64,000 bases of DNA from Amoebidium appalachense (taxonomy: Eukaryota > Protista > Ichthyosporea): NCBI GenBank assembly GCA_963693365.1, contig CAVNZM010000006.1, forward strand, positions 3,806,267-3,870,266. The letters run 5' to 3'. Position 1 is the first letter of the stretch, and each line of letters begins with the position of its first letter. The translations under genes and the position numbers were made by a program. The notes beneath the pieces were generated by a model. It was not told the DNA's origin. It saw only the letters and a program-made list of their open reading frames with translations, and ran no database searches. Positions 1-64,000 of this stretch are shown here, one piece after another.

Positions 1-1
1 G

Positions 2-775
2 CGCATTGAAGTTCCCACCCACATGCTTTTTGTTTGTCACTGACACGTAGTAGTCGCGCCCGATGATATCACCCAGGACGTCAAAGAACACGTTTTTGCC
101 CACACCTTGGACTGAGCGAAAAACAAGTGCAACTCCAGGTTTGATGTCGGGGTACTGAAAGAGCTGTGCCAGCCAGCGACGTGTGTAGAGGTAGGCTGCC
201 TCGTCGTAGTTGCACAACATGCGAAGATGGTCAAAAAACATGCTGGTTGCCGATTGGACAAGACGTCGTGCAGGGTCGTGCGCTATCTTGAGTCCACGGA
301 AAATGTTGAAAGGACGGCCTTGCCTCATGACGTTTCGTGCACGACGCTTCCCGGTCCGTGGATCTGGGTCTGCCGGGTCAAACACGAAGCGCGAGTACTG
401 CAAAATGTGGTCGCTCTCCATGAACCAGGTGCCCTTGCAGACGCGTGTGATGGGTCGGTTGCGCTCGAAAAACTCCATTCTGAAGAGGTACTTAGAGAGG
501 CATTCTCGCGCGCTCTTGGGTGAGTGCAGCTCGATGACGTGCCGCTCAGTCCTGTGGTCGTAGTTCTTGAGAAGGTATTGTGATCCGCATTCGACAAAGG
601 CCACGTTGCTCTGCAAAAAGCGAATGCAGTTCTCATAAGTCCATGAAATGCTCTGACACGTGCGTGGCTTGAAGCTCAGCCCAAACTGCGGTTCTGGGCT
701 GCAGTCCTCGAATCGCTGAAACAAAGTCTCCTCGGACATGGGAGGGACCTCCAACAGGTGAAATATGGATGACAT
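2..775 (-). CDS. D5-like superfamily 3 helicase (DUF5906/NrS-1 helicase type), 3' end outside window; not in the ORF track
   Basis: Hand translation from ATG at 775 is open to the window edge: MSSIFHLLEV...FNIFRGL...WLAQLFQYPDIKPGVALVFRSVQGVGKNVFFDVLGDIIGRDYY...GGNFNA. Walker A (QGVGKN) in the characteristic SF3/D5 context. Confidence 0.85.
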   Translation of the reverse strand, partial: MSSIFHLLEVPPMSEETLFQRFEDCSPEPQFGLSFKPRTCQSISWTYENCIRFLQSNVAFVECGSQYLLKNYDHRTERHVIELHSPKSARECLSKYLFRMEFFERNRPITRVCKGTWFMESDHILQYSRFVFDPADPDPRTGKRRARNVMRQGRPFNIFRGLKIAHDPARRLVQSATSMFFDHLRMLCNYDEAAYLYTRRWLAQLFQYPDIKPGVALVFRSVQGVGKNVFFDVLGDIIGRDYYVSVTNKKHVGGNFNA

Positions 776-1015
776 CGCTACTGGTGGCTTAGATAATATT
801 TTTTGCCGGCCAGGGGCAGACTGAGCCATTTTTGCATGCACGAGATTTTATATACCTTGCACCCCGGGGTCGCGCGGGGGCTTGGGCCCGGGGGGCACGC
901 CAGGCATGCACGACCGGTGAGGGATGGAAGGCACGGCGGGCTCGCAGGGCCCAGAGCCTCGTGGGCCACCCAAGCCCCCAACCGTGTCCCACCACCTAAG
1001 ACCACCCTCAAGCCG

Positions 1016-1324
1016 ATGGAGCTGCAGTTCCTGCGGGACCTGCTGAAGCGCGAGAACGGGTTTGAGGGTGCGCCCGCGTTCGAAGACGGCGCGAGGGTTA
1101 CTCCTGCTGCCCTCTTCCGACTCTACCAGTCCTGGTGGGAACACAACACACCCGACAAGTCCAAGCGGCCCACCCAGCGCGACTTTGGGATTGCAGTTAC
1201 GGCCATCCTGGGAAAAATTAAGAGCACCCGCGTCAATACAATAGCCTACGGCGCTGAAGGTTGTGAGGCCGCTTCAGGCTTTACACGCTGCTATGGTTTC
1301 GATCGCAAACTTATCGGAGTGTAG
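1016..1324 (+). CDS. Small protein resembling a stand-alone D5 C-terminal winged-helix domain
   Basis: MELQFLRDLL...VTPAALFRLYQSWWEHN...PTQRDFGIAV...RCYGF resembles the LY..Y..W...s...Fg..l pattern of D5/primase C-terminal domains. Divergent from the helicase gene. Confidence 0.5.
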   Translation: MELQFLRDLLKRENGFEGAPAFEDGARVTPAALFRLYQSWWEHNTPDKSKRPTQRDFGIAVTAILGKIKSTRVNTIAYGAEGCEAASGFTRCYGFDRKLIGV

Positions 1325-2016
1325 CGTGCTTGTGTGGCGTGTTGTGTGGCTAGTGGCTAGAACGTGGCCAGATCCGAGAGCCAATCAAATCGCGCCATTG
1401 GGTCCTCTGTGGCTACTGTGGCTACTTTTTCTCTTTGTGGCTACTGTGGCTAGAGAACTAAATCGGTGGCGGGGGTTGTGTTTGGCGGCTTTTGATTGGC
1501 TGTTGCTAGGGAGATCTCTGGTTTGGGTGTGAGTCGGAAAGAAGTGAACACAGTAGCCACAATAGCCACGCGGTTGGGGTAGCTGGGTAGGCAGGTCGTA
1601 GGTAATTTTTACACTGGAAATATTTTTGCCCTTTTTATTTTTTTCTAAAAGTAAGTTACTACTCTTTCGACCTTACTACCACTAAGTAAACGAACAACCC
1701 AAGCAAATAATTTATACTAAAACCCATTTTGGTGTGTGTTGGGGTCGCTACTTGTCGTAAGATCCCCATGGCTATGCAAGTGAACCGAGAAGGTCTTGCC
1801 AGGACACAGGAGCTCCCCGCAGCGTGGCCGGGAGGGGCTGGGCGGGCCTGCGCAGGGCCCGGGTGGCCGGGAGGGGCACGGCAGGCACGGTGGTCTCGCC
1901 GGCGGCACGAGCCTCGCGTGCCACGCATGCCACCCCCCGCCACCCAGCCCCCAGGCCCCCAGGCGGCGCGGATGGGTGACCGAGGACGACCGATATGGAC
2001 TCGACTCGGGTTGGGT

Positions 2017-2892
2017 TTATTGACGTGCCGCGGCGGCCCAGGCAGCAAACGCCGCGCGGCCATCCGCAAGCGCCTGCGCGACCTTCCCGGGGTCGACGTC
2101 CATGGGCGACGCAAACAGCCTCCGCTCCGGAGCGACCACCACGAGGCGATCTCCGAGGCGGGTGCGGAGGTTGGCGAACTCGGTGGCCGCTAGCTCGGTG
2201 CTCGAGTCACGCTGCAGCGCATAGCAGAGCTCCATGCCCGTTTTTGGCACGGATTCTGCGGGACAGTGCGCCAGCGAGTCGCACAGCACCGTGACGTAGA
2301 TGCCGTCGAACCCATCTGCGGCATCCTCGAGTGCTTTGGTGAGGGGCACCAGCTCAGAGACGCCGCCGTCCAGAAACACGGTGCCGCCGTACTCGACGGG
2401 GGGGACCGCGAGTGGAAGGGCCGAAGACGCGCGCATGCCGACCTGGTACTCGGGCCCTGTGAACCACCGCTCCTTCTTGTTGAGGAAGTCCCAGGCGACG
2501 CAGTGGCAGCGCGTGTAGATGTCCGCGTCGATGCCCTCCAGAAGCGCCGCCGCACGCTCCTGCAGGGTGAAGCGGCTGTACGCCGCCCCGTACAGCATTG
2601 ACCCCACAACCGTCCTCCAGGTTTTCGGAAGCAGCGCCATTGCGCCACCCCACGGTTCCACAATGTCCTCCACGCACTTCAGCTTCCCCAGCTCGCGCGC
2701 CAGGTCGTCCAGGCGGTCGGCAACCACGAACGGCGCCACCAGCGCGCCGACGGACGTGCCGTACACCCTGTCGACCCGGTACAGCCCCGACGCGAGCATC
2801 CCCTGCATGAACCCGACTTGGAAGCAGCCCTTGACGCCGCCCCCGGGCAGCAGGACCCGCACACGTGTCCTGGCTTGGGAGGGTGTGTCCAT
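2017..2892 (-). CDS. Patatin-like phospholipase
   Basis: GGGVKG glycine loop, GTSVG nucleophile motif, RASSALP and DGG catalytic Asp motif. Intronless; start taken at MDTPSQ. Confidence 0.92.
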   Translation of the reverse strand: MDTPSQARTRVRVLLPGGGVKGCFQVGFMQGMLASGLYRVDRVYGTSVGALVAPFVVADRLDDLARELGKLKCVEDIVEPWGGAMALLPKTWRTVVGSMLYGAAYSRFTLQERAAALLEGIDADIYTRCHCVAWDFLNKKERWFTGPEYQVGMRASSALPLAVPPVEYGGTVFLDGGVSELVPLTKALEDAADGFDGIYVTVLCDSLAHCPAESVPKTGMELCYALQRDSSTELAATEFANLRTRLGDRLVVVAPERRLFASPMDVDPGKVAQALADGRAAFAAWAAAARQ

Positions 2893-3388
2893 GTTGATGT
2901 AGCCGAGAGAGAAAACAGACATGTGCAACATGTTTCAATATTTGAAATTCCCACGACCCGGGCATGCACGGCCGGCCGGGAGGGGCGGGGCGGGGCGGGG
3001 CACACAGGCCCGGCCCGGGAGGCAGGCGTGGCGCGTGCGCTGGGGAGAAACGCGGGCCACCCCCAGCCACCCCAGCCCCCCACCGGGAACCAGTCAACAC
3101 GGGGTTGGTTTGGGGTGTGTTGATTGGCCATTATGAATGCAGCGCCTGCTCCCTCCACAGCCAATGAACGTCGAGTGCCATCGATCAGTTGTGTCCGATT
3201 GGAGAACATGTACAGCGGGCCGAATTGGGAATTTTGATTGGCGTCGCGTGAGAGCCCGGGACCGCCACAGCCAATGGGCGACGGCGGGGCCTCCCAACGG
3301 CTCGGCACAAGGGTACATAAGCACAGACGGTGTTGTCAAAAGCACACTCTTACTGCAGCGTGACAAGTGGGCTTTTGGAATTGCCAAC

Positions 3389-4414
3389 ATGACGCACATT
3401 GAGCGTATTCACATTCTCGGTGAGGACCGCGAGCCCCGGTTCGCCTACCAACCGGAGCTGTTCTACACGCTGCACCTGCACCCCGAGGCGCCTGGCTCGA
3501 TCCGCATGGGCACCGCCGCGATCTTCAGCACGAAGACAGGGGAGGAGAGGGTGTGGCCGGTCGACGTAATCCTCTCCGGGCCGGTACCGCGGCAGTTTGT
3601 CGACGAGGAGGGGCGGTGGACCCAGCGGGACAGTTCCACAGCCTGCGACGACCCCCGCTTCGTCGGGCGTGGCAGCGCGGTGTGGCGTGCACTGTACGAC
3701 GAGCTCCAGGCGCCGGCGCTGCGCAGCCTCATCCCCGACGACACGGGCCTCGGGTTTCTCCTCCGCAAGTGCCCCCACCCCGACTTCAACGATGTGGACA
3801 ACGACGAGGTGATCACCGTCGAGGAGACGGAGCACGTCTGGGGTGTGAGGCTTGGGCAGGCGATGGCGGCTCCCACCGTGGTTCGGCCGCTCCACCAGGT
3901 CGTCGAGAGCGCGACGGTCCGCGCGGCACCGGTGCCGGACGAGCAGTGTTCCGTGTACGCATTGAACACGTTGGCCAGCGACGAGGTGGCCAGGACGGTA
4001 GAAATGTTTGAGGTCTGGCCGGTGCTTCATTGTGGGCAGCCCGCGCTGCGCCTGGGTCTCTACTACCTGCTGGCCGAGGGGGCGCTGGCCGAGCGCTTTG
4101 TGCCCCTGGACGTCATCGTCCAAGGCGACTGGGTCGAGGCCAAGATCGACGAGCACGGGAAGTGGAGGGCCGGAGCGGTGGTTGGGCGAAGGGCGGTGGG
4201 CAGCGAGGATGCGTTCCACCTCCAGATTGACATTGCGCTCGACCAGCACATGGAGTTGGGGGTGATGTCGCGGCAGATGCTGGGAATGGATGCTACCAGG
4301 GAGGAGGTGCTTGAAGTTGCACCACGCAGAATGTACGAGGAGGATTGTGACGTGCGCACCGTGGAGTCCAAATTCCCGTTCGAGGCCCACGCGTTTAAGC
4401 ATCTATTTTCGTGA
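3389..4414 (+). CDS. Hypothetical viral protein with a two-fold internal domain repeat
   Basis: GC3-rich ORF from MTHIERIH. ERVWPVDVILSG..FVDEEGRW recurs as ERFVPLDVIVQG..KIDEHGKW. Confidence 0.65.
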   Translation: MTHIERIHILGEDREPRFAYQPELFYTLHLHPEAPGSIRMGTAAIFSTKTGEERVWPVDVILSGPVPRQFVDEEGRWTQRDSSTACDDPRFVGRGSAVWRALYDELQAPALRSLIPDDTGLGFLLRKCPHPDFNDVDNDEVITVEETEHVWGVRLGQAMAAPTVVRPLHQVVESATVRAAPVPDEQCSVYALNTLASDEVARTVEMFEVWPVLHCGQPALRLGLYYLLAEGALAERFVPLDVIVQGDWVEAKIDEHGKWRAGAVVGRRAVGSEDAFHLQIDIALDQHMELGVMSRQMLGMDATREEVLEVAPRRMYEEDCDVRTVESKFPFEAHAFKHLFS

Positions 4415-4444
4415 CAGACGGGTGAACCTGGCGAACTTGGTGAT

Positions 4445-4582
4445 TGCGCATATGTGAGCCTAAACCCTAAGGGTTGTGTGGGGGGTGGGGGGTGGGTGTG
4501 TATTTGTGTTGGTTGCGCATATGTGAGCCTAAACCCTAACGGTTGTGTGGGGGGTGGGGGGTGGGTGTGTATTTGTGTTGGT
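4445..4582 (+). repeat. Two ~69-bp direct repeats containing CCTAAACCCTAA
   Basis: tgcgcatatgtgagcctaaaccctaa(g/c)ggttgtgtggggg...tatttgtgttggt occurs twice in tandem. Confidence 0.85.
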
Positions 4583-4855
4583 CATTTGCCCCCAGGATGG
4601 GTCAAAACGCGCAGCGCGCAAATAAACCACAAAAACACACGAGCGCGCCCCCCCCGAGAGGCGCGCGAGGCGCGCGAGGCCTGGGAGGCCCGCCCGCCCG
4701 GCGAGCCACGCGTGCCACGCATGCCACGCATGCCCCCAGGCCCCGCCCTGGGTCGGGAATTTGGCGAGCAATTGGTCAATGTGACCATTTGCCGTTTTGC
4801 TTGCAACTTGGTTGTGAATGCAATCGATCGGTCAATGTGACCGGTTGCCATTTTG

Positions 4856-4919
4856 GTTGTGTGTGTGTGTGTGGGTGTGGGTGTGTATGGGTCGGGCTGT
4901 GTGTGTGTGTGTGTGTGTG

Positions 4920-4973
<54 letters not shown>
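4856..4973. repeat. (GT)n microsatellite inside the viral block
   Basis: Direct observation; same type as the host intron microsatellites. Confidence 0.9.
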
Positions 4974-4976
<3 letters not shown>

Positions 4977-5124
4977 ACTAGAACATGTTAGCCAAACGCC
5001 TCGCGATTTGAGGCTTTTGAAATGCTTGTCCGTGACCACCCGCTCCAGTTGTGTGCTGCACCCTCCCGCTGGTCGGGTACAAAAGGCGCCGCGCACAAAA
5101 TAAAATCGCAGTCTAACACTGAAG

Positions 5125-6471
5125 ATGTCTTCAAACATATCTCCTCCTCCGTACACGCCCATCGGCCCCACCTGGAAGCCCGCTCCCGACCACGAGTCGC
5201 GCGTGGACACGTCTTCGGTTCCCGCGTGGCCCGGCGTGCGCCCATTCTTCGCGCCGGACGGGGAGAAGGTGCTGACGTACCTCACGAAGTTCGACGGGCA
5301 CGTGTTCTTTAACGCGGGATACTCCGCGTCCCTCGGGAGCAAGGAGGCGGGTGTGCGGAAGAACCCGGTTGTGTGGAAGAGTAACAATCCGGTCGTTCTT
5401 TCGAAGACTTCTGAGTTGATGAGGACCATTCTGACCCCAGAACTGTCCTCTGATTGGTTGGTTAGATCGGCCTATGCAAACATCAAGAAACTACCCGCCG
5501 TGGGCAATCCAGATGGTTCTGTTGCCTACGCCTATGCGACTCACAACCTGGAGCCCAGCATCGAGATGTACCGCGGGACCTGGTTTGGATTCGAGCTGAC
5601 AGCGCCATTTCTACGCTACTGCTTCCCCGCGCTGGGCGACTTCTGGGACAACGTGATGGTCAAGTCGCACCTGGGCCAGATGAACTACTTCGCGGATCTG
5701 GTGCGCATCGCCGACCAGGGTCGCGGCGACGGTGCAAAGACCAAGTCCGTGCACATCGACATGGAGGCCGCGGACGCGGAGGGCCCGCGCGCGGTAAAGC
5801 GTGAGCGCAAGGACGACGGGGAGCAGCAGGTGGCCAAGCGCAACCCGCTGGATGCCATGCTGGAACCGAGCAACTGGTTCAAGCCGGGAGTGGACTTCGA
5901 CACCGCGCTCGAGCAACTCAACAAGTTCATAACCACCGCGCACCGCGACATCTGTACCAACTACTGCCCCGAGGCGCTCGCGGCGGTCAAGCGCGCGGAG
6001 GAGGTGGAGCGACAGGAGCGGGCCAAACAAGACACAATCCAGCGGGGCATCGACTCGACAATGGCCATGGTGAAGGCCGTGCGCGAGATGAAGGCGGAGC
6101 TCAAGGGACTGGACGTGCACTTTGTGGCGTGGCGGCAGCTGAATTTCGAGTGGTCGCTCAAGGCCGCGGGCGGAGCGTGCGTGTACGCGCTGCACATCGA
6201 CGGATACGTCAAGATTGGGCACACGGGCAACTCACTCTTCCAGCGCTACAAGCACGATCTGTGGTCCCATGACATGAAGGAGTTGATCGTGGTCTGTATG
6301 CCCCATCGAAACAAGAACGAGGCGGAGCAGTTCGAGAAGCTGGTGCAGAACCAGCTCAAGCAGGTTCGGGTGATGGTGGGCAACAAGCGCGAGATGTTCG
6401 CGGCGGACTACGTGCGCGTGTCAAACGCGTTCAGGGAGGTGTACGGGGACGACGACATCCGCTTTGTGTAG
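5125..6471 (+). CDS. KilA-N-like plus C-terminal T5orf172 (GIY-YIG-like) domain protein
   Basis: N-terminal DGHVFFNAG...YRGTWFGFELTAPFLRYCFP is KilA-N-like. Central coiled coil. C-terminal VYAL..GYVKIGHT...RY...EKLV...KREMF is T5orf172-like. Confidence 0.75.
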   Translation: MSSNISPPPYTPIGPTWKPAPDHESRVDTSSVPAWPGVRPFFAPDGEKVLTYLTKFDGHVFFNAGYSASLGSKEAGVRKNPVVWKSNNPVVLSKTSELMRTILTPELSSDWLVRSAYANIKKLPAVGNPDGSVAYAYATHNLEPSIEMYRGTWFGFELTAPFLRYCFPALGDFWDNVMVKSHLGQMNYFADLVRIADQGRGDGAKTKSVHIDMEAADAEGPRAVKRERKDDGEQQVAKRNPLDAMLEPSNWFKPGVDFDTALEQLNKFITTAHRDICTNYCPEALAAVKRAEEVERQERAKQDTIQRGIDSTMAMVKAVREMKAELKGLDVHFVAWRQLNFEWSLKAAGGACVYALHIDGYVKIGHTGNSLFQRYKHDLWSHDMKELIVVCMPHRNKNEAEQFEKLVQNQLKQVRVMVGNKREMFAADYVRVSNAFREVYGDDDIRFV

Positions 6472-6632
6472 AACTATCTGTGTCGCACATTTGAAGATGG
6501 ATTACTCAAGCAATCACTCAAGCAATCACTCAAGATGAGTGATTGCCAGTTTCGTTTGCATCCAGGAGCACGAGATCCCCAACCCCCAGTCCTGCACCAA
6601 ACATTTATTACACAAAACCCGCTCCAGGCGAG

Positions 6633-8027
6633 CTACATAAAGTGAACCTTCAAGTTGTCCGCCGTGTGGTGTTTTACGTGGAATGGGGCCAATAGCTTCT
6701 CTGTGTCTTCAATCGAAACCAGCCTGCAGTACAGAACACCCAAGTCGTTCGTCGCCTCGTACCAGTCGTAAAACATGTATATCACTCGGATGCGTCCTTC
6801 GTTGAAAAGGACTTTGTAGTCCAGGTCTCGGGCGTGGTTGATCACCTGAGTCAGCGCATCGAGCCTCTGCTTCATGTTTGTCCGCTGTGAGGTGCCGTTG
6901 ACCTTGAATCCGTGTGGGTTGAAGCGAATAAACAGAGTCGACGCTTCGTGTGAAGACGCCTGGTTGAACATGCGGGCTACCTCACAGGTTGCATCGTAGG
7001 CGCGGTGTTGGTCCTCGTCAACCTCTATGACCAGCAGAAATGTGCCAAAATCGTAGTACAGATCTGGTCGAGTGCGTTCTCCGCATTCGTTGGGTACCAC
7101 TCTGTCGTGGCTCGTTGGGGGTCCAATGGCTTTGGAGACGTGGCGCAGCACCTTGATCTCAGGGCGCGCCTCTGACCATTTGGTTCGCAGCGTGGACTGC
7201 GGATCGCACATGGCGCATAGGTTGCCCTTTCTGTATACCCTTGTCAATTGGCATGCTGAACAAAAGCGACGCGTGTCACAGAGCCTGCATGACGCCTTCT
7301 GTTTGCCATGTCCACAGATTCCCAAGCCGCCACACGACCTGCAGTGCCTCTTTCGCCTCCCATGCTGGCACACTGAAGAACCGTGGCATTGCTTGCATAT
7401 GTGCTTCAGTTTATCGTGCACGCAGATGCCCGAGCCGCCACACGGCCTGCAGTACCTCTTCTGGGTCCCGTGCTCGCAGAATGCTGAACCGCCGCACGGT
7501 CTGCATTCTCTCCTCATCCTGTCGTGTTCGCATATGGCGGAGCCACCACATGGCTTGCAGCGACCCCTCTGTCTACCATGTTCACAGATTGTCTTACCGC
7601 CGCATGGTTTGCAACTGGCCTTTTGCCTGTCATGCTCGCAGATGGCTGAACCACGACAAGGCTTGATTTCTGCCTTTAACCTGTCGTGCTCGCAGAACGC
7701 TGAGCCTTTACATGGTCTGCAGCGAGCCTTCACCCTGTTATGCTCGCACAACGCAGAGCCGCCACACGACCTGCATGTTGCCTTCCGCTTGCCGTGTTCG
7801 CAGATCGCCGAGCCACCACACATCTTGCATGTTGTCTTCTCTCTGTTATGCTCGCAAAATGCGGAACCGCCACATGGCCGGCATCTTGTCTTTCGCTTTC
7901 CATGTTCGCAAACCCCTGAACCGCCACATGGCTTGCAGTATCTTTTTTGACAGCCGTGTGCACATTTGCGGGAGACAGCATGCGCAACAGAGGATGCCAC
8001 AAAATCTCCTTGGTCAGGTGGAGTCAT
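6633..8027 (-). CDS. Cys/His (CEHxxxKxxCxxCGGS) repeat protein with C-terminal PD-(D/E)xK-like endonuclease
   Basis: About 13 tandem 18-aa Cys/His repeats followed by RPDL...LVIEVDEDQH..Y..CE..RM...IRFNP, an architecture common in NCLDV genomes. Confidence 0.85.
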   Translation of the reverse strand: MTPPDQGDFVASSVAHAVSRKCAHGCQKRYCKPCGGSGVCEHGKRKTRCRPCGGSAFCEHNREKTTCKMCGGSAICEHGKRKATCRSCGGSALCEHNRVKARCRPCKGSAFCEHDRLKAEIKPCRGSAICEHDRQKASCKPCGGKTICEHGRQRGRCKPCGGSAICEHDRMRRECRPCGGSAFCEHGTQKRYCRPCGGSGICVHDKLKHICKQCHGSSVCQHGRRKRHCRSCGGLGICGHGKQKASCRLCDTRRFCSACQLTRVYRKGNLCAMCDPQSTLRTKWSEARPEIKVLRHVSKAIGPPTSHDRVVPNECGERTRPDLYYDFGTFLLVIEVDEDQHRAYDATCEVARMFNQASSHEASTLFIRFNPHGFKVNGTSQRTNMKQRLDALTQVINHARDLDYKVLFNEGRIRVIYMFYDWYEATNDLGVLYCRLVSIEDTEKLLAPFHVKHHTADNLKVHFM

Positions 8028-8153
8028 ATTTTCAGATTCACAGCTGGCTCTTGTGAGTAGGCACTGATATTATTGCGCGCGTGTAGCAGTGTGTTGTGCA
8101 TCAACAACAGCCGCGTCTATAAAAACCCTATTCACCACGCAAACACCTCCACA

Positions 8154-8930
8154 ATGGATCTTCTCACTAGAATCCAGGAACACGAAGTGCCCTTCACACA
8201 GGGAAGTGCGCAGTGGCTTAAGGCCCGGGCATCCATGCTCACCGCGAGCGACGTGGGCGCGGCGCTGGGTGTGAATCCCTATCAGACCAGGAAACATCTC
8301 ATCGAATGCAAATCTGGTCTGCAAAGACGAATCGTCGACCCCGTGTTCGTGGCATTCGGACACAAGCACGAGGCCAACGCGGCGGACGCGTACATGCGCG
8401 CGACGGGGCGCTCGTGCATCGAGCTGGGGCTGATCCGGCACGCGGAGCACCGGTGGCTGGGGGCGAGCCCGGACCGGGTGACGCTGTGCGGGCGCGCGGT
8501 GGAGATCAAGGTGCCGTACAAGCGCAATTTCATGGACGGACAGCCGATCCCCGAGCACTATGTGGCGCAGGTGCAGACACAGCTGTTTGTGCTGGGGCTG
8601 GAGGTCGCGGACTTTGTGCAGTTCGACCCGCGCGACGGGTCGCTGCGCATCGACGAGATCCCGCGGGACAAGGAGTGGTGGGCCAAGCACGGCAAGACAT
8701 TAATGAGTTTCCAGGCCAAAGTGTTAGACATACGTGCAGATCACGAGCTGCAGGGATGGGAGACAGAGGACCAAGACACAGCGATTGTCACATTCCCGAT
8801 TTTATATAAACTCGCAGGGCAATGTGTGTATAGATGGACACAATCCACCGACTACACCCCGGCCCCGGCCATCAGCCGCAGTAGCGGCATCGGCAGTATA
8901 TATACGACAAAGGGATGTACGGTAAGATAG
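8154..8930 (+). CDS. YqaJ-like viral recombinase / lambda-exonuclease family
   Basis: QGSAQWLKAR..LTASD, G.KHE, LGASPDRV, EIKVP and Y.AQVQTQL motifs. TATAAAA at ~8118 upstream. Confidence 0.92.
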   Translation: MDLLTRIQEHEVPFTQGSAQWLKARASMLTASDVGAALGVNPYQTRKHLIECKSGLQRRIVDPVFVAFGHKHEANAADAYMRATGRSCIELGLIRHAEHRWLGASPDRVTLCGRAVEIKVPYKRNFMDGQPIPEHYVAQVQTQLFVLGLEVADFVQFDPRDGSLRIDEIPRDKEWWAKHGKTLMSFQAKVLDIRADHELQGWETEDQDTAIVTFPILYKLAGQCVYRWTQSTDYTPAPAISRSSGIGSIYTTKGCTVR

Positions 8931-9065
8931 AGCATCAACAGGTACCGCTTTATCAAATTTTGTTTTTTTGTGTAAGTGTGCTGGTCCGGGAGGCCAGGTG
9001 CCTGTATGGTGGGTGAAAATGGATCCTGTGACACCATGACTGCTTTATGGTTAATATATTATGCA

Positions 9066-9302
9066 ATGAAGCCCAAGTATGTCAAGGGACGGTACTGTAG
9101 AAGAGGCAAACGGATCTACCGCCGAAAGCTCCGAAACGCACGAAAAAAGTACAAAGTCCAAAAGAAACATCTAAAACGCATATGGGAACCATCCTATCGT
9201 GTACTTGACTATGTGACCGGCATACCGACCATGACAACCAACAACGGGTGGGACATCACAAGCTACGAGTACCCCCTACACTACAACATTTCCCGTATGT
9301 AA
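9066..9302 (+). CDS. Small basic hypothetical protein
   Basis: K/R-rich 78-aa ORF (MKPKYVKGRYCRRGKRIYRRK...) abutting the stop of the convergent gene. Confidence 0.4.
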   Translation: MKPKYVKGRYCRRGKRIYRRKLRNARKKYKVQKKHLKRIWEPSYRVLDYVTGIPTMTTNNGWDITSYEYPLHYNISRM

Positions 9303-9304
9303 GT

Positions 9305-22278: not shown

Positions 22279-22907
22279 AGTGTCGTGTATGATGGGTAAC
22301 TAGTCTATGTGTTTTGTGCACTGGAAACGACAGTAGAAAAGTGTAAATCAAACGTTCTGCTTCCCATGTTTGTGACATGGGAGGCACTGCTTTATATAGT
22401 CGTTGGCCACCTCATGGTGGCCTCGTGTGCACCCTGGTGGTGGGCCATGTACAGCATGGCCGAAAAGAGAGCACAATGAAAACAAGTCGTTAAAGATATA
22501 AAAGTTAACTGTGCACGTTGAGTGGCTAGTTAACTTGCACTAAAGCACACAAATAAACGTGTTTAACACACCAATTGCAGTTAAACGTAAATCTTGCTTC
22601 ACACAACTAAAAATATTCTGAGAATATCCGGGAATAAAGCACACTACCACTCTAAGAATAGAATCCTGTGGCAAATATAGACATGACATCATCTGAACCG
22701 GGAATATTAATTAATGAGCACAATTAGCACGTTGCTAGTGAAGCTCGTCATTGGTACAGTTTTGGCTCAAACATATAACTACCATATATGAATATGACCG
22801 TAAACAAAAGCTCTATGCACTCGAGTGAGTGTTGAAACAGTTATTCAATTGCTCAGAAACTTTCTCTAACAGACATTGCTAGCCGGGAGTACCAGTGTAC
22901 TCCAACA
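22143..22907 (-). repeat. LTR 4 (5'-most), 765 bp
   Basis: Same sequence and termini; followed by TSD CTGTC. Confidence 0.95.
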
Positions 22908-23532
22908 CTGTCAGGGGTGGAAGATCGAAGTCGAGAAACCAATCTACAGTGGTGTGAAAACCAATCTCTTCCTCTTGTGGGTTCGCGTTCACGTCCAAAC
23001 ACGCGAAATTTTCAATCGCCAACCAATCTATGTCCTGGGGCGGAATTGTCATCGAAGGGCGGAAAGTCTTTCCGGGTGTAAAATGTTGCAAAAATGTTGC
23101 CAATGAACACGGATAAACCAACGCGTTCACACTGGTCAAACATGTAGCCGTTAAAGGGTCAACATAGAGGACTTTCAACTCATCGGCTACATGCCTTAGT
23201 ATCCCGGCTGCTTTTCTCAGGCGGAGGAATTCAGAAAGCGAAGGTGTCGTGATGTGTTCATTTGGCTGTGTGCGCGATAAACAATGTGAAGCAACGTGCA
23301 TGAAATGGTGGAACGGCGTATTTGGTCCTGTTTTTGTAAAAGGTACACAAACGTGGTTGTGGTCATCTATGCACTCGCCCAACGCGCACGATTTATCTAT
23401 AGTCACATCCAAAAACACATCATCTCCCCTCGTCACTAACGCTGCCTCAAAATATCGATCTTCACCAACTCTGACTCCAATAGTGCCTGGGGCGTACAGG
23501 CGCAATAAGCATGCAAACTGTGCTATGTCCAT
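22908..23532 (-). pseudogene. 5' part of the viral gene interrupted by the Copia array
   Basis: ORF MDIAQFACLL...FDLPPLT reads into LTR4 and stops after VLEYTGTPG, which is LTR-derived. Confidence 0.8.
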
Positions 23533-23982: not shown

Positions 23983-24408
23983 CTACTCCGAGTCGCCGTC
24001 GTCGAGGATGGAATCTGTTTCTATATAGTTGTCCTTGTCGACGTGTTTGAGTGATTGCTTTGTGGCGAGGTCTTTGTCCGGTATGGCAGTCAGGAAGGAT
24101 ACCAGGTCGTTGGCCTTTTTCGTGTCCTTGAAGTACGTTTCGAGCTGACGGCGGAGATACTTTTCGCTTAGTTGTGGCTTTTTGATTGATTCTTGAAGAA
24201 TCAGAAGGTCTTTCGTGGGAAGCTCGAGTGACCTGACATTTCCAGACGACATGTACTTCAGAATGGCCTTCTTTATAGTATTCATTTTCTTGGTCACAGG
24301 TTTTGTCTGTGCCGCGTGCTCCTTGATCTGTGCGTGGAGGGTTGCATAGTCACGCAAAACGCCCTTCAAGCTCTCTACATTGGAGATCTCGGTGTTTGGT
24401 TTTCCCAT
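23983..24408 (-). CDS. DUF5760-like conserved NCLDV protein
   Basis: L...LRDY..L..QIK......V.KKM..IKK.IL.YM...NV..L.L....L.L.ES.KK..LS.KYL...L..YF pattern recalled for this giant-virus family. Confidence 0.7.
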   Translation of the reverse strand: MGKPNTEISNVESLKGVLRDYATLHAQIKEHAAQTKPVTKKMNTIKKAILKYMSSGNVRSLELPTKDLLILQESIKKPQLSEKYLRRQLETYFKDTKKANDLVSFLTAIPDKDLATKQSLKHVDKDNYIETDSILDDGDSE

Positions 24409-24531: not shown

Positions 24532-25842
24532 ATGACGATGTCATCGACCGCGAGCTCGACGTTTCGATCATTGGTTGGATTTGTCCGTGTGAACCCCAAG
24601 ATGCGTTTTGCGACGACCGGGGCGAGTTGTGTGCCGTTGTGCTTTTTCAACCATCCTGTCGAAGGAGCCTCCGTGTTCCTAGCCCGACCCCGTGCCTACA
24701 ATCCATTTGGGGGTGTCGAGAGGTGGAGCCTTGAGACGGGCCCCGTTGGCTTCCCAAGCGCTGGTCTGGCGCGGTTTTGCGAGTTGACCACGGCGTACGT
24801 CGTGCTGGTAGTCGATTATCCGACGTTTGTTGTGTGGGGCAAATGTACAATCTCGTTGGTTAATCGCCATCGCGCGGAACCTGGCGTTGGCCAATCAGCG
24901 TTGCTGCGCGCGTCACCGGGCAGTGCAAACGCGGATAGGCGGGTTGGGGCCGCGTCGGCTGACATACTCGCGCTGGACGTCTTGCTGCCGTTCGATGTAA
25001 CCGGTGCGCGTCTCGTGGGATACAGCGGTCGCCACGGGGTCGTGGTATTTTTGATCCACAGCAGCCCAGATCTGGGTGACTGGGCCTGTCCGCAGCTCCG
25101 GGGATATGGGACCGGTACTGCCGGGGCTGGGAAAGGACCCGGGTTGCCGCTTTGGTCGATGGACCGACATGTGGTCTCCGAGCATCCGTGTTCTGTGGGC
25201 GACTCGCTTGTTGTGTTGTGTCGGGGAGAGCGAGGATCGACGTTTGTTGTGTCGGTTGATTGGGTCACGGGTGCACGGAACTGGAGTGTCTGTCTGGGTG
25301 GGTGGATGGGTGCGATGGGGGTGTTGTCGGTGTCGAGTGTCGATATCCGTGTTCTGTACCACAATCATGCGCCAGGTGAGGACGGGACGCTCGCGGTGGT
25401 GGACGCGATCGGTCTGCGGGACGGCCGACTTCTTGGGGAATGCAGAGTGGATATGCTGACGACATGTAGACCTCATTGGTGCGGTGATGAAGTCGGGTGT
25501 GCATTCTGTTCAAAGGCACCCCTCGAGCCCACACATCGATACTTTGCCAAGCGTGCGTTATGTACTTGTTGGGTGGATATGTACGAGAGGACGGTGTTGT
25601 GCCGCGGGGGCGACCGATTGTATGTTGGTCGCCTGGGTTTCAGTAGAGGGGATAGCGATGTGCTGATATACGAAGTCGGCGCTGACGATGTGGTGCGTCT
25701 TGTCAGCCAGCATCGCGTGTTTCTGGATGGTGTCGTGCACGCGCTGACCATGAGTGTCGCCAGTCGATTCGTTGTTTTGGGCGCACACGTGACCGCCGAT
25801 GGAGGGAGTATCTTTCAGGTTTTCCGGTGGAAGATCGAGTGA
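24532..25842 (+). CDS. Hypothetical protein, possible PQQ-like beta-propeller
   Basis: 436-aa beta-rich ORF with VSVDWVTGARNWSV and DAIGLRDGRLL blade-like segments. TATAAA just upstream. Confidence 0.55.
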   Translation: MTMSSTASSTFRSLVGFVRVNPKMRFATTGASCVPLCFFNHPVEGASVFLARPRAYNPFGGVERWSLETGPVGFPSAGLARFCELTTAYVVLVVDYPTFVVWGKCTISLVNRHRAEPGVGQSALLRASPGSANADRRVGAASADILALDVLLPFDVTGARLVGYSGRHGVVVFLIHSSPDLGDWACPQLRGYGTGTAGAGKGPGLPLWSMDRHVVSEHPCSVGDSLVVLCRGERGSTFVVSVDWVTGARNWSVCLGGWMGAMGVLSVSSVDIRVLYHNHAPGEDGTLAVVDAIGLRDGRLLGECRVDMLTTCRPHWCGDEVGCAFCSKAPLEPTHRYFAKRALCTCWVDMYERTVLCRGGDRLYVGRLGFSRGDSDVLIYEVGADDVVRLVSQHRVFLDGVVHALTMSVASRFVVLGAHVTADGGSIFQVFRWKIE

Positions 25843-26147: not shown

Positions 26148-27128
26148 TCATATGACCACTGATTCGATGTATCCTCGGGTGGGTGCGGCGTCCCATGCAG
26201 GGCAGCCATGTGTGTGTTGCGTTTGTGCTGTGGATTGTGCGTACGGGTCGAGCTTGCGTTCGTGGCCGACAAAGAAGTTTGTCGTGAGAGTCGCGATTGT
26301 TCGGCTTGATGCGAGTGTCACTTGGTATGCCTTGAGGGATGCACATGCAAATGCTTTGTCGTCGAAGAAAGACTCGCATCTCGCCAGTGTTTTTGAGATT
26401 GTTGTCGAGCCGGATTTGACGGCCGTGACCGTTCCACAGTCGTGCAGTGGAAACGCAACATATGTGCCTTCAAAAGCACCCTTGATGGTCCAACAAGGAC
26501 TCTGTTTGTCTCCAGAGAAGTGGATCAGTCCTGAAGATATTGCCCCGTGAACTGTCTCGTCGTATGTCATCCACGGAGACGATCCGTGTGTGAATACGCG
26601 GCCGCCGTGTACATCCAGAAATGCAATTCTATGGATGTTTGGGTCCCTCGATGTGGCCGTTTTCTGTTGGGGTTCGTTATTTTCCTGGTAGAGTCTTTTG
26701 TAATTGGCGAGTTCGTGGTGAAGCCTAATGTTATCCTTTTCCGTCTCTTGTAATGAATTTATAAGCCTGTTCTGATTATTTAAGAGCTTGATCGCGTTGC
26801 TTATTTGCGACATGATACTTTCCAATCCCTTCTCGAGTGGATCGTCTTTGGTTTTTTCTGTTGTGCTAGGTTGCAAATGAGCAGCCATCGTCGTGAAATG
26901 ATTCAAAATTTTGAGTGTCTGTGTGGAGGTTCTGTTAAACATGTTTATTATATTTTTAATGTCGTCTATTTTGTTTGGGTCGTCGACATCAGTGCCACCC
27001 CCAACTGTTCCCGATCCAGCGGTGTCGCTTTCTTTTGGCATTTTCGATAACAATCTGACGATGTCATCGTGTGTGGCGCTCAGTGAATTCCGAATTCCGC
27101 TTAGAATTTCTTCGTTTACGGTTGACAT
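26148..27128 (-). CDS. Hypothetical protein with N-terminal coiled coil
   Basis: 326-aa intronless ORF with heptad-like segments. Confidence 0.65.
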   Translation of the reverse strand: MSTVNEEILSGIRNSLSATHDDIVRLLSKMPKESDTAGSGTVGGGTDVDDPNKIDDIKNIINMFNRTSTQTLKILNHFTTMAAHLQPSTTEKTKDDPLEKGLESIMSQISNAIKLLNNQNRLINSLQETEKDNIRLHHELANYKRLYQENNEPQQKTATSRDPNIHRIAFLDVHGGRVFTHGSSPWMTYDETVHGAISSGLIHFSGDKQSPCWTIKGAFEGTYVAFPLHDCGTVTAVKSGSTTISKTLARCESFFDDKAFACASLKAYQVTLASSRTIATLTTNFFVGHERKLDPYAQSTAQTQHTHGCPAWDAAPTRGYIESVVI

Positions 27129-27213: not shown

Positions 27214-28397
27214 TGGTGGGACGGAAGCAAGGGTTCTGTGTGGCGACCAATCGGAACGCGCGGTTGGGGCGTGGTCGTGGTGACGGGACTGCGGTCAAGG
27301 GTAGAAGCATCATCGAAGACCCTGTCGTGTCGGACGCGCAATCTGATTGGTGGGACGGAAGCAAGGGTTCTGTGTGGCGACCAATCGGAACGCGCGGTTG
27401 GGGCGTGGTCGTGGTGACGGGACTGCGGTCAAGGGTAGAAGCATCATCGAAGACCCTGTCGTGTCGGACGCGCAATCTGATTGGTGGGACGGAAGCAAGG
27501 GTTCTGTGTGGCGACCAATCGGAACGCGCGGTTGGGGCGTGGTCGTGGTGACGGGACTGCGGTCAAGGGTAGAAGCATCATCGAAGACCCTGTCGTGTCG
27601 GACGCGCAATCTGATTGGTGGGACGGAAGCAAGGGTTCTGTGTGGCGACCAATCGGAACGCGCGGTTGGGGCGTGGTCGTGGTGACGGGACTGCGGTCAA
27701 GGGTAGAAGCATCATCGAAGACCCTGTCGTGTCGGACGCGCAATCTGATTGGTGGGACGGAAGCAAGGGTTCTGTGTGGCGACCAATCGGAACGCGCGGT
27801 TGGAGCGTGGTCGTGGTGACGGGACTGCGGTCAAGGGTAGAAGCATCATCGAAGACCCTGTCGTGTCGGACGCGCAATCTGATTGGTGGGACGGAAGCAA
27901 GGGTTCTGTGTGGCGACCAATCGGAACGCGCGGTTGGGGCGTGGTCGTGGTGACGGGACTGCGGTCAAGGGTAGAAGCATCATCGAAGACCCTGTCGTGT
28001 CGGACGCGCAATCTGATTGGTGGGACGGAAGCAAGGGTTCTGTGTGGCGACCAATCGGAACGCGCGGTTGGGGCGTGGTCGTGGTGACGGGACTGCGGTC
28101 AAGGGTAGAAGCATCATCGAAGACCCTGTCGTGTCGGACGCGCAATCTGATTGGTGGGACGGAAGCAATGGTTCTGTGTGGCGACCAATCGGAACGCGCG
28201 GTTGGGGCATGGTCGTGGTGACGGGACTGCGGTCAAGGGTAGAAGCATCATCGAAGACCCTGTCGTGTCGGACGCGCAATCTGATTGGTGGGACGGAAGC
28301 AAGGGTTCTGTGTGGCGACCAATCGGAACGCGCGGTTGGGGCGTGGTCGTGTGGTCAAGAGTTCGAAGACCCTATCGTGTCGAACGCGCAATCTGAT
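27214..28397. repeat. 134-bp tandem repeat, 8 full copies plus 1 degenerate copy
   Basis: Units start at 27214, 27348, 27482, 27616, 27750, 27884, 28018, 28152 and 28286. Near-identical, with no variable spacers. Confidence 0.95.
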
Positions 28398-28631: not shown

Positions 28632-29825
28632 ATGTCTAACCTTAGCTCTCGAGACTACGACTTGGGGGTTGATGGTGCTGCAATCGAGGCGGCCCTTGCC
28701 ATTCCTAGGAATGTCAAAAACCTCGTGCGCGTTGCTGGGTTCGGATGTGTTGTCCGTGATCTGATGACTACTTTTGCCGACTATACCCACGACGAGAGGC
28801 TCAAGGAAATCCTTTCTGCTATCAAGTGTATGTTACCTGAAGGGATACCACAATACCCGAGGGGTTTCACTTCAGAAGACGAAGAGAGTCTGAGGACCGC
28901 CATCGTTTCTTACTGCAAGAGTAGCAACCGCAACGCCACGATTGCTCGGAATGTCGAGTCGTGTGCACGTGCCGGTGATCTCGCCCAGTCTATGGGTGCC
29001 GCCCCCATCGCCCCGCCTCAAGATGTCGCCCCCATCGCCCCGCCTCAAGATGTCGCCCCCATCGCCCCGCCTCAAGATGTCGACATCGAGATGGCTGAGC
29101 AAGACCCAGATGATACTAAGATGGGTGATCACAATTCGGAAAGGAGCTCCAGTAGTAGGTCTGATACCGAATCGTCGTCGTCTTCGTCTTCATCTGATGA
29201 CGATGACAACGATGACAACGATGACAACGATGACAACAAGGGGGCTATCTGTCTCAGTGACTTCTACAGTCTTATGCAGAAGAATCGTGAGAGCCAGGAC
29301 AATGTGGTTATCGATGTGCCAGCCTCGCGGTTTGCTATGTTCGATAAACTGGGCAATCCGATCTTTGTCGAGTCACGCCATCGAATCGCCGAACCCCAAA
29401 CCGCTCCGATCGAGGTTTCCTCTGACGATGACACCACTCAAGATCGTCCGCCTGTCGCTCAGCCCGTCGTCTCTAATGGGATCAGTAAGACCATTGGCCG
29501 CAAGTTGGCGATTCCATCGGTGGGCAAGACCCTCCCCGGGACTGCCGAGGCACTTCGGAAGATCGCGAATGCCGGTGTTCAAAAGCACTCCAAGCCCAAG
29601 AAGTCTAAGCCCAAGAAGTCTAAGTCGGAATCGCCCGTACCCAACAACATTGCCGACTGTAATAACCCAGAGAGTAGAAAACGTGCATTTTCTGAATATA
29701 TGGATACTTGCAAGAATATTTGTAAACTGGTAAAGAAGAATATATTGACAGAGGAGCAGGCTAAACAGGCTAAACTTGCGGCCTGGCAGAAGAGAATCAA
29801 AGACGAGTCAAAGCCTGATGAATAG
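28632..29825 (+). CDS. Hypothetical protein with APIAPPQDV x3, Ser/Asp tract and KPKKS basic motifs
   Basis: ORF from MSNLSSRD; TATAAG at ~28538 upstream; last clear gene of the viral block. Confidence 0.7.
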   Translation: MSNLSSRDYDLGVDGAAIEAALAIPRNVKNLVRVAGFGCVVRDLMTTFADYTHDERLKEILSAIKCMLPEGIPQYPRGFTSEDEESLRTAIVSYCKSSNRNATIARNVESCARAGDLAQSMGAAPIAPPQDVAPIAPPQDVAPIAPPQDVDIEMAEQDPDDTKMGDHNSERSSSSRSDTESSSSSSSSDDDDNDDNDDNDDNKGAICLSDFYSLMQKNRESQDNVVIDVPASRFAMFDKLGNPIFVESRHRIAEPQTAPIEVSSDDDTTQDRPPVAQPVVSNGISKTIGRKLAIPSVGKTLPGTAEALRKIANAGVQKHSKPKKSKPKKSKSESPVPNNIADCNNPESRKRAFSEYMDTCKNICKLVKKNILTEEQAKQAKLAAWQKRIKDESKPDE

Positions 29826-30214
29826 GTTTAAATCATGTCATTAGTGTCGATGTATGCGTGTTCTTAGTCTTAACAGTAGATTCGGCTTCTATTAGTATGC
29901 ATATGTGTTTCTGTGCTTGTTTCTTATATCGACTTGGCTTGTCAATAAAAGTTTCATTGTGTTGTTACTCGATATGTTTGGTGAATATTATACCCCCCCC
30001 CCCCCCCCCTGCCTCGCGTGCCCCACGTGCCCCACGTGCCTCGCGTGCCCCACGTGCCTCGCGTGCCTCACCTGCCTCACCTGCCTCACGTGCCCCCCCC
30101 CCCCCTGTCCCCCTGCCCCCCTGCCTCACCTGCCTCACGTGCCTGCCTCACCTGCCCCCCCTGCCCCCCTGCCTCACCTGCCTCACCTGCCTCACCTGCC
30201 CGGGTCAAGACTCA

Positions 30215-30525
30215 AGACTTAGACTTTTTGCTCTCTGTCTCGCGTGTAGACTTAGACTTTTTGCTCTCTGTCTCGCGTGTAGACTTAGACGTTTTGCTCT
30301 CTCTCTCTGTGTGCTTCGCGTGTAGACTTAGACGTTTTGCTCTCTCTCTCTCTGTGCCAGTGTCCATACTTAGACTTTTTGCTCTCTGTCTCGCGTGTAG
30401 ACTTAGACTTTTTGCTCTCTGTCTCGCGTGTAGACAGAGACTTTTTGCTCTCTGTCTCGCGTGTAGACTTAGACTTTTTGCTCTCTGTCTCTCTGTGCCA
30501 GTGTCCATACTTAGACGTTTTGCTT
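30215..30525. repeat. 33-bp minisatellite (agacttagactttttgctctctgtctcgcgtgt), ~9 variable copies
   Basis: Direct observation. Confidence 0.9.
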
Positions 30526-30799
30526 CCCGTCCCCCGTTCCCCGTTCCCCGGCCTGATCCTTAGTGTGACACTATGTTATCGCGTTTTAGGTTTAAATCGA
30601 TAAGTGTTTGTTGTCATTGGCCACTTTTCCACTTAAAAGTGGGTAATGCTGTATCGTTTGTTTTATCTCTTTTTTTTTTCTCTTTTTCGATTTTAAGTGA
30701 AAAAAAGTGGGAAGTGGGAAATAGATCGATCGCGATCGGATCGGAGGGTTTGGTGGGGGTGTGATCTCAAAGTTACCAGATCACATGACTAGTCCAATA

Positions 30800-31053
30800 T
30801 TGGATTGGGCGAGGGACTTGGTAAGGTTCGAATCGAATCGCGAAGGGCCGCCAGGCCCGGAGCACGGCGGCCGGAGGCCGGCCCGGCCCGAAGGGCCCGG
30901 CGAACGGGGCCCGGCGACCAGTCCGGCGCACCGGGGGTCTGGGGGGACGGGGGGTCTGGGGGGAGGGAGTGGGATCCACCGGCCGCCGTGCTCCGGGCCT
31001 GGCGGCCCTTCGCGATTCGATTCGAACCTTACCAAGTCCCTCGCCCAATCCAA
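30800..31053. repeat. Perfect inverted repeat, 75-bp arms with a 104-nt GC-rich spacer
   Basis: 30800-30874 is the exact reverse complement of 30979-31053. Confidence 0.93.
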
Positions 31054-31699
31054 AGCTGACAACGGAGGACGGTATAAAATTTTAAACTCTGCTACACTTG
31101 GCAGAACGATGCTACACGATATCCGATTGGTTGTAGCTTGAAGCCAAGAAACCAATCAAATAAGCCGGATATAACGCCCTTGGTCCCCCTAGTTGCTTTC
31201 AGGGTATAAACCAAAGAAAGCGAACCGTCTGCCACTCAGTCAGCTCAGTCTCCGTTTCTATCCTCCCAGAGAGATGGCCTTTGCCATGAAGCATCTCTAT
31301 TCCCTGTCCTGGCTTGCGCCAGAACCTTCTGAGGGTGAGTGAGTCGGCCCCGGGAACACCGACTTCCCAACTAACCGTCACGACGGCCCTCTTAAGGGCC
31401 GCAACATTGGCAGCCACGCCACAAGCACCCAAACATCACCACCGCCTCCGAGGTGAGCAGGGGCAGCGCCGTGAGCAGCTGGAGGAAGAGCGGTCAGACC
31501 AAGGAGACAGCTACTAGCATGGTAAGGGTTCAGTCACGTCCAGTCTGTTTGCTTGCGCACAACTTCCTGGCCGTCGCTGGCACCCAACCCCGGCCTAATC
31601 GTTCAGGGGGTGGGCCCTTCTTCAATCTGCAGCCTCCTCTCCTTGTCTTTGCAGTTGTTGTTATAAAAATTAGTTCCTTTTGCCCTATCTTGTTTCTCT

Positions 31700-32487
31700 G
31701 CCGGTAGCTCGTGTTTGGCGTACGGGCCTACGTGCATCCAACGGCTGCTTTTGCGGCTCTTGGAATACCGTGGGGTGCTGCCAGGCCACGCAAGTGCACA
31801 CGTGCATCACCTGGCGGCCCCATGTTTAGTCGGTCCAAAAGCCATTCACGGGCAGGCGGGGCATCGGCCATAAGTGGTCGGTGTCTGTTCGTTCCGTCAC
31901 TGGCACCCATTCTCGGCCTGATCGCTTAGGGAATGGGCCTACTTTTTTCTGCCTCTTCTCTGTTCCGTTTGACTTAGTTTCTCTCTTTCTATGCCGGCAG
32001 CTCGGGTTTTGCGTACGGGCCTACGAGGATCCAATGGCTGCTTTTGTGGCACTTGGAATACCGTGACTGCTTGGGTTTTGTGCTGCCGGGCCATGCACGT
32101 GCACACGTGCCTCGCCTGGCGGCCTCATGTTCAGTCGGTTCAAAAAGCAATTCACGGGCAGGCGGGGCAGCGGCCATTAGTGGTCGGTGTCTGTTCGTTC
32201 CGTCGCTAGCACCCATACTCGGCCTGATCGCTTAGGGAATGGGCCTTGTATCTACTTTCTTCTCCTCTTTCTCTGCTCCGTTTGAAACTGGTTTCTCTTT
32301 CCCGTCTCTGGTTTCTTTGTCGGCAGCTCGGGTTTTGCGTACGGGCCTACGAGCATCCCATGGCTGCTTTTGCGGCACTTGGAATACCGTGGCTGCTTGG
32401 GTTTGCTGCCAGGCCACGCACGTGCAAACGTGCTTCACCTGGCGGCCCCATGTTCAGTCGGTCCAAAAAGCAATTCACGGGCAGGCG
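31700..32487. repeat. Imperfect ~300-bp tandem repeat (two full copies plus one partial)
   Basis: gcgtacgggcctacg...cttggaataccgtg...ttcacgggcaggcggg recurs in units starting at ~31700, ~31993 and ~32320. Confidence 0.85.
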
Positions 32488-32519
32488 GGTGCGCGAAACA
32501 GACGTCGGTGGCTGACCCT

Positions 32520-32562
<43 letters not shown>

Positions 32563-52027: not shown

Positions 52028-64000
<11,973 letters not shown>

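Follow-up and report, generated by a model that had tools for sequence, protein, structure and literature searches.

When a run of compact, intronless genes is found next to the ordinary genes of a protist, the question arises whether it is viral DNA that has become part of the chromosome and, if so, where it ends and how long it has been there. The question is raised here by a stretch of 64,000 nucleotides of the ichthyosporean Amoebidium appalachense (assembly GCA_963693365.1, contig CAVNZM010000006.1, positions 3,806,267 to 3,870,266 of the forward strand; hereafter, the window), in which an earlier, sequence-only reading had placed an endogenous giant-virus-like block at 1..32490. In Amoebidium, Sarre et al. 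(2024, PMC11244446) report giant-virus insertions with kinship to Mamonoviridae, 90 of them chromosomal and 42 unplaced. These insertions, some of which contain secondary transposable elements (TEs), are silenced and polymorphic between isolates; their MCP/VLTF3 phylogeny is sister to Mamonoviridae, they are hypermethylated in the non-CGC/GCG context, and their integration is treated as stochastic (PMC11244446). Here we argue that a giant endogenous viral element (GEVE) of the Nucleocytoviricota, young and probably medusavirus-related, most likely has its right end in the window. This element would reside in the protist chromosome, is predicted to be silenced by methylation, and is decaying, with a stack of Copia retrotransposons in one of its genes. 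As such, it adds to the giant-virus insertions of the published sort, and its locus is possibly among those already catalogued.

Two intronless arms and the Copia tandem between them

The virus-like DNA forms two arms, a left one at 1..11067 that continues past the window edge, and a right one that spans 22908 to ~31.1 kb. The 11,840 bp that separate them (11068-22907), 36% of the interval originally proposed, are a tandem of Ty1/Copia elements, so that the virus-like DNA amounts to ~19 kb and not to 32.5 kb. The sequence-only reading is supported as to giant-virus origin, right end and recent age but overstated the size of the block, the tandem having gone unmentioned. Fourteen intronless open reading frames (ORFs) of 88-464 aa lie in 1-11067 and 22908-29825 (the ORF split by Copia counted as one), and the 13 ORFs compared account for 72% of the left arm and for 64% of 22909-29990. 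Simple repeats make up 0.3-0.8% of the arms versus 14% of the host side (self-BLAST and repeat scan). Being intron-poor and gene-dense, unlike the host DNA, the arms have the character of a GEVE; they are contiguous with host DNA in the assembly, and a host Copia sits within the virus-like part. The claim of a dozen intronless, mostly intact ORFs holds for their number and lack of introns, but one is split by Copia, with its downstream part overlapped by another ORF, and the C-terminus of the YqaJ protein (see below) is divergent.

The insert (11068..22907, minus strand) comprises three Ty1/Copia elements in tandem with four common long terminal repeats (LTRs) of 765 bp, starting at 11068, 16181, 19162 and 22143. 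One unit is full (5113 bp) and two each lack 2132 bp; the units are 99.7-99.9% identical (self-BLAST), and the LTRs differ by 0-1 mismatches. A single 5-bp target-site duplication (TSD), CTGTC, at 11063-11067 and 22908-22912 serves all three units. The assignment to Ty1/Copia follows from the TG...CA LTRs, the 5-bp TSD, the order gag-protease-integrase-reverse transcriptase, with the integrase ahead of the reverse transcriptase, and the Pfam domains RVT_2, rve, Copia gag and protease. In contrast to a standard Ty1/Copia insertion, there are three units on four LTRs under one TSD, two of them equally deleted (2.1 kb) with a 721-aa frame kept. The deletion is identical in both shortened units, and the 721-aa open frame begins inside the LTR. 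The sequence adjoining the LTR resembles the primer site at which Drosophila copia and Ty5 use a half-tRNA-Met.

The tandem interrupts one virus-like ORF, the two parts of which, 23532-22908 and 11062-10173, share a frame: the upstream part (22908..23532, minus strand) is an orphan, and the downstream part (10173..11062, minus strand), which contains a Glu/Arg/Lys repeat, stays open as far as the target duplication. Where the split ORF ends, it is overlapped, in a different frame, by a coiled-coil ORF of 322 aa (9305..10273, minus strand) with sub-threshold coiled-coil matches only (Pfam, NCBIfam). Because the Copia LTR has different flanks in 4/4 public runs compared, Copia is a dispersed host element, and the presence of this CGC-depleted host element, with its perfect TSD, within a viral ORF points to residence of the viral DNA in the host nucleus.

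Nucleotide composition bears on the age of the insertion. The observed/expected (o/e) ratio of CpG is 0.99 in the left arm and 1.17 in the right arm versus 0.69 in 33.4-64 kb, and that of CGC is 1.01-1.04 in the arms (1.04 in the left one) versus 0.60 on the host side. In Copia, CGC/GCG is down to 0.40 as compared to 0.95 for CGG and 0.96 for CGT, and the LTR contains 0 CGC/GCG in 748 nt. This depletion fits the CGC/GCG bias of 5-methylcytosine reported for Amoebidium (PMC11244446). In host exons the bias is not clear (adaptin exons, CGC 0.63 and CGG 0.58). The contrast suggests that the Copia family would be a long-term resident of the host and the virus a recent arrival. The proposal of a recent integration is supported by arms without CpG decay and by a Copia with 0-1 LTR mismatches inside a viral ORF. 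As a separate matter, the loss of CGC/GCG in Copia (11068-16946) could act as a sequence-only marker of the host methylation system.

The origin of the locus can then be envisaged as a failed infection, in which viral DNA would enter the nucleus and become joined to a chromosome. The host would methylate this DNA, too recently for CpG loss; later, host retrotransposons would insert and genes would break singly. Erosion is the only one of these steps to be seen directly, in the Copia-disrupted ORF. Judging by the established roles of the families, the products used by the free virus in replication and recombination would be the D5 primase-helicase and the YqaJ nuclease, and the patatin would remodel membranes.

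Viral relatives of the arm genes

The left arm encodes a YqaJ-type exonuclease/recombinase of 258 aa (8154..8930, plus strand; PF09588, E 4.5e-23, above the Pfam cut-off). Its residues E73, D107, E117 and K119 are invariant in an alignment of 92 sequences. Among 6337 relatives found in cluster representatives, the closest are two Logan proteins, with 72% and 55% identity, followed by matches of <=48%; in a quick tree of 46 rows without a named virus, these two and the window protein make up a separate long branch (SH-aLRT, an approximate likelihood-ratio support, 99). The structure model (mean confidence, pLDDT, 96) has as its top BFVD match the YqaJ protein of Acanthamoeba castellanii medusavirus J1 (E 5e-18, 35% identity, template-modelling (TM) score 0.86). 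Single-protein scans yielded two matches only in IMG/VR, at 29%, and one in JGI metagenomes, at 28%. Past about residue 207, the C-terminus (8775-8930) diverges from the two closest relatives, whereas a short tail resembling that of the two is found in another frame, reflecting either an old frameshift or an assembly error.

The genomic neighborhood of YqaJ relatives is of the Nucleocytoviricota type. A search with the YqaJ alignment returned 80 IMG/VR loci, from 6 of which 107 ORFs were scanned (3 of the 6 had been chosen since they already matched window proteins). All six contain giant-virus genes, namely, VLTF3 (2/6), minor capsid P11 (5/6) and capping enzyme (1/6), and in 5/6 the opposite strand carries a patatin gene, ~4-6 kb upstream of YqaJ. 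The same arrangement is seen in the window, where a patatin-like phospholipase of 304 aa (PF01734, E 5.1e-18, above the Pfam cut-off) is encoded at 2017..2931 on the minus strand; by tblastn, it has weak matches in 2/82 viral loci. Between the two genes lies that of a Cys/His-repeat protein of 464 aa (6633..8027, minus strand), which contains 54-bp repeats and is 36-48% identical to an ORF adjoining YqaJ in 2/82 viral loci (L080 and L082); its C-terminus may be a nuclease-like domain, one that matches no family. Thus, YqaJ, patatin and the Cys/His protein all have relatives in giant-virus loci; for most other ORFs no relatives were found.

Taken together, these relatives, their loci and the YqaJ model support a place of the element in the Nucleocytoviricota and weakly suggest a lineage related to Mamonoviridae. 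The medusavirus match is in line with the published position of the Amoebidium insertions, close to Mamonoviridae (PMC11244446). For Mamonoviridae themselves, the likeness consists in the top named structure match of YqaJ (TM 0.86, 35% identity), but this is a single distant gene, and the window protein is closest in sequence to the two Logan proteins (72%, 55%) on their own long branch. The resemblance to the published Amoebidium GEVEs (PMC11244446) includes a block that is dense in genes and poor in introns and lies among host genes rich in them, a D5 primase, a secondary TE, medusavirus affinity, CGC/GCG-biased depletion in the host, and clades common to isolates; the difference is that the visible part of the element shows no MCP, VLTF3, A32, JmjC or DNMT. 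That the virus might be undescribed, as had been suggested, is upheld only in a weak sense, inasmuch as no close relative was found among named viruses or in IMG/VR, but the implied novelty is not, giant-virus insertions in Amoebidium being already published (PMC11244446).

Of the remaining left-arm genes, the first (2..829, minus strand) encodes the N-terminal 276 aa of a D5-type (SF3) primase-helicase, truncated by the window edge (phrog_1156, DNA primase, E 9.6e-12); the ORF leaves the window just past what is presumably the Walker A motif. Six longer, DUF5906-bearing proteins are 36-41% identical to this fragment over 25-37% of the query (its last third), and there is a weak primase match in PDB (E 0.005). 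A protein of 448 aa (5125..6471, plus strand) contains a T5orf172 domain (PF10544, E 3.6e-5, above the Pfam cut-off), with no KilA-N detected at its N-terminus by Pfam, PHROG and NCBIfam scans. In the right arm, an ORF of 141 aa (23983..24408, minus strand) resembles DUF5760 (PF19064, E 8.8e-5) at 23.1 bits versus a cut-off of 27, and 0/10 of its homolog candidates passed. Hence, of the families named at the outset, D5-type, YqaJ, T5orf172, patatin and the Cys/His repeats stand, but KilA-N was undetected and DUF5760 falls below the Pfam cut-off. In IMG/VR single-protein scans, 0 relatives were found for the DUF5760, patatin, 425-aa (below) and T5orf172 ORFs.

As correctly noticed earlier, several ORFs have no recognizable family; in the searches run, 8/14 have neither a credible family nor a credible relative. 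An orphan of 162 aa (836..1324, plus strand) matches nothing in Pfam, PHROG and NCBIfam, and PDB searches with it and with the Cys/His protein gave nothing credible. For the 425-aa orphan (3137..4414, plus strand), likewise without a family match in the three collections, the Atlas lead to a SET domain scores only 0.77, below 0.9 (low recognition), and the single-sequence structure model, with a pLDDT of 33, is uninformative. Downstream of YqaJ there is a small basic ORF of 88 aa (9036..9302, plus strand) without an NCBIfam match. On the right, an orphan of 436 aa (24532..25842, plus strand) has Atlas leads of 0.87-0.88, including PQQ_2, all below 0.9 (low recognition), and is possibly a beta-propeller; it is followed by an orphan with a coiled coil, 326 aa (26148..27128, minus strand; ORF list, Pfam scan), and by the final ORF of the arm, an orphan of 397 aa with a low-complexity middle (28632..29825, plus strand; no Pfam, PHROG or NCBIfam family). 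Rfam gave 0 matches across the 64 kb.

Other sources of such a set of genes were considered. Phage contamination was ruled out, as the relatives accompany genes of eukaryotic viruses and Copia is inserted. Cellular intron-containing orthologs were likewise rejected as the source, none having been found for any arm gene in limited searches. A third possibility is a giant repeat of non-viral or small-virus nature (a Plavaka-type cluster, polinton or adintovirus) carrying a few giant-virus-like genes. D5-type helicases and T5orf172 are also known in polinton-like elements. Both element types are present in Amoebidium (PMC11244446), no giant-virus core structural gene is in view (Pfam), and the arm behaves in public runs as a multi-allelic repeat (see below), all of which would suit such an element. 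Against this stand the absence of any match to a tyrosine recombinase, transposase, pPolB or capsid among the arm ORFs (Pfam, PHROG, NCBIfam), as would mark an adintovirus or a Plavaka element, and the occurrence of YqaJ, patatin and the Cys/His protein together in giant-virus loci, which make this origin quite improbable as compared to a GEVE.

The right edge and its alleles in public runs

How does the element end? Past the last ORFs, three repeat structures follow each other (repeat scan and self-BLAST): a satellite (27214..28351) in which a 134-bp unit is repeated 8.5 times at 99% likeness, short-period tandem arrays of 9-bp and 33-bp units (29990..30524), and a near-perfect inverted repeat (30800..31053; self-BLAST) with 75-78-bp arms, forming a 77-bp stem, and a GC-rich loop of ~98 nt. 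The DNA fold of this hairpin has an energy of -140 kcal/mol (z -18.4, 0/200 shuffles), and it has 0 exact matches in IMG/VR. CCAATC/GATTGG hexamers, a possible promoter motif, occur 30 times in the 8.2 kb of 22908-31060, many of them in the satellite, versus 16 times in 31.5 kb of host DNA. Next comes a buffer (31061..32515) with a 2.7-copy repeat of ~295 bp, where the o/e ratios (CGC 0.54, CGG 1.0, CGT 1.12) follow the Copia-like pattern and make a host repeat likely. Within it, 31270-32515 shows an ATG followed by GT donor-like sites, ~295-bp repeat copies that are 84-85% identical, and no Pfam match, and is perhaps a spliced transcript derived from the repeat.

The context-specific change points fall at 31012-31795 for CGC/GCG and, for CGA, best at 31127, with an interval reaching 32788. 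Since change points differ by statistic, the edge can be set only between 31.0 and 32.8 kb, and on composition it would more likely lie just past the hairpin. The notion of a single abrupt change to host genes fails on three counts, namely, the host-repeat-like buffer at 31061-32515, the spread of change points over 31.0-32.8 kb, and an intronless nearest gene, PARL. That this is the right end of an insertion is nevertheless supported.

Part of 23000-32900 is contained in 20/23 listed public runs from 4 named studies, and three DNA runs (three organism labels, two studies) cover 30/30 bins of 22500-27200 at ~98-99% identity. Compared with the window, long pieces show differences of ~0.4-2% (24/2324; 3/734; 59 and 5 gaps/2811). 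In two runs, X1 and X2, two alleles occur together at many sites, the window alleles often not being the main ones, and X1 pieces vary several-fold in depth (45-368). This would suggest several copies per genome, with the caveat that contig depth is not copy number, that the window itself may come from one of the runs, and that ploidy or mixed strains are alternatives. The Copia-free site is present in 2/4 runs (X1 and X2), where a contig, identical over 131-132 nt (0 differences), runs from the left flank straight into 22908. Allele sites listed outside the LTR (n=38, with 2 LTR sites dropped and 70 beyond the listing) comprise 15 nonsynonymous, 10 synonymous and 13 noncoding ones; among the sites listed, 6 versus 1 go toward CpG decay in the window copy, too few for a conclusion. 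In run X19, tentatively an RNA run, the coverage of 22500-27200 is confined to the LTR part, and no RNA run among those listed matches 23000-32900, so that neither provides evidence on expression.

The order satellite, short arrays, near-perfect hairpin and host-like DNA brings in another explanation: the right arm might be a viral terminus of defined structure, for example, a long terminal inverted repeat (TIR) that includes a satellite and an end hairpin, in a lineage that integrates repeatedly with its own machinery, like punuiviruses and phaeoviruses, the window copy being disabled. The co-occurring alleles in X1 and X2, the uneven depth of the pieces, and the recovery of 22.9-27.2 kb in three DNA runs at ~98-99% fit this possibility. 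The ends of the punuivirus, a latent GEVE of Chlamydomonas, are TIRs of 10.8 and 14.8 kb with a satellite, and its relics recur in the genome (10.1101/2024.09.03.611062); the left ends of phaeoviruses bear an inverted repeat (PMC13236599). With the punuivirus, the window shares a satellite near the end and related copies elsewhere, but the punuivirus has a TIR pair, a 6-bp TSD, a full hallmark set and demonstrated virions, whereas none of these is shown for the window, and one of its genes is disrupted (10.1101/2024.09.03.611062). Further, the element yielded neither a TSD nor a terminal motif nor an integrase (no viral integrase among the arm ORFs by Pfam scan), and the window shows one end only; several alleles are expected also from ploidy, mixed strains or segmental duplication, contig depth again not being copy number; and the hairpin, with its 0 exact IMG/VR matches, could be a small host transposon. 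In PMC11244446, GEVEs are contrasted with adintoviruses, which retained their terminal repeats, and a complete core set is not reported. In the available literature, including PMC11244446 and PMC12344493, no description of defined ends was found for Amoebidium GEVEs. On balance, we consider a defined terminus rather unlikely.

A chimeric assembly, in which the repeats at 27-33 kb had led to a misjoin of host DNA with a virus, free or episomal, or with a copy residing at another locus, would also place viral genes next to host genes. The junction does fall in tandem, low-complexity repeats, and the arm is multi-allelic with window alleles often minor. The CGC-depleted Copia with its perfect TSD in a viral ORF argues against a free virus, but not against a misjoin of two chromosomal copies. 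We regard such an artifact as quite improbable.

Several observations weigh against a medusavirus-related GEVE with its edge at the hairpin. MCP, PolB, A32 and VLTF3 were not found among the window ORFs scanned (Pfam), the D5-type fragment being the sole hallmark, so that the assignment to phylum and order is based on accessory genes. No named virus is included in the YqaJ tree, which was built by a quick method, and the medusavirus match concerns one gene and its structure only, BFVD ranks 2-3 being without a name and Clandestinovirus at rank 23. The all-CpG change point, at 32365-32847, lies near the limit originally proposed and is at odds with the context-specific ones. Of the words of 23000-32900, at most 0.64 are contained in any one run, and no piece linking the LTR to the split viral gene is seen among the 29 of 910 pieces listed.

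The host flank and the meaning of the locus

The presence of conserved host genes adjoining the block was confirmed: rhomboid/PARL, biotin ligase and a gene with Adaptin_N are real. The nearest one, ~4.5 kb past the hairpin, encodes a PARL-like mitochondrial rhomboid protease (35614..36654, minus strand; PF01694, E 9e-26), the best named matches of which are animal PARL proteins at <=41%; it is intronless despite the intron-rich genome. At 40200-47868, a multi-exon, membrane-protein-like gene has a Ser-rich last exon of 461 codons and no Pfam match; by eye, an intron at 42940-43335 contains a long, AT-rich, imperfect palindrome, possibly a miniature inverted-repeat transposable element. The biotin ligase gene lies at 50.3-51.5 kb, with its domain (50294-51533) split across two overlapping frames by a short intron, a frameshift or an error. 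An intron-rich adaptin gene, which we take to be that of AP-2 alpha, occupies 52055..64000 on the plus strand, with 15 exon-like open stretches, Adaptin_N in 7/28 frames scanned, and simple repeats in its introns; in an intron at 53770-54340, the beginning of the adaptin exon that follows appears, by eye, to be repeated in several degenerate copies.

As a probable GEVE, the locus is useful as a very young example, in which CpG has not decayed, the LTRs of Copia are near-identical and the Copia-free site can be recovered. Its importance would be greater if the satellite-and-hairpin end recurred at other copies, because Amoebidium integrations are treated as stochastic in PMC11244446; latent, self-integrating giant viruses have been shown in algae (10.1101/2024.09.03.611062, PMC13236599). 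The arm would then be the conserved terminus of a medusavirus-related virus that integrates repeatedly via satellite and hairpin ends and leaves near-identical young copies within a genome and across isolates, a prospect to which we give only a small chance, but one that would mean a latent holozoan virus lineage and not random capture.

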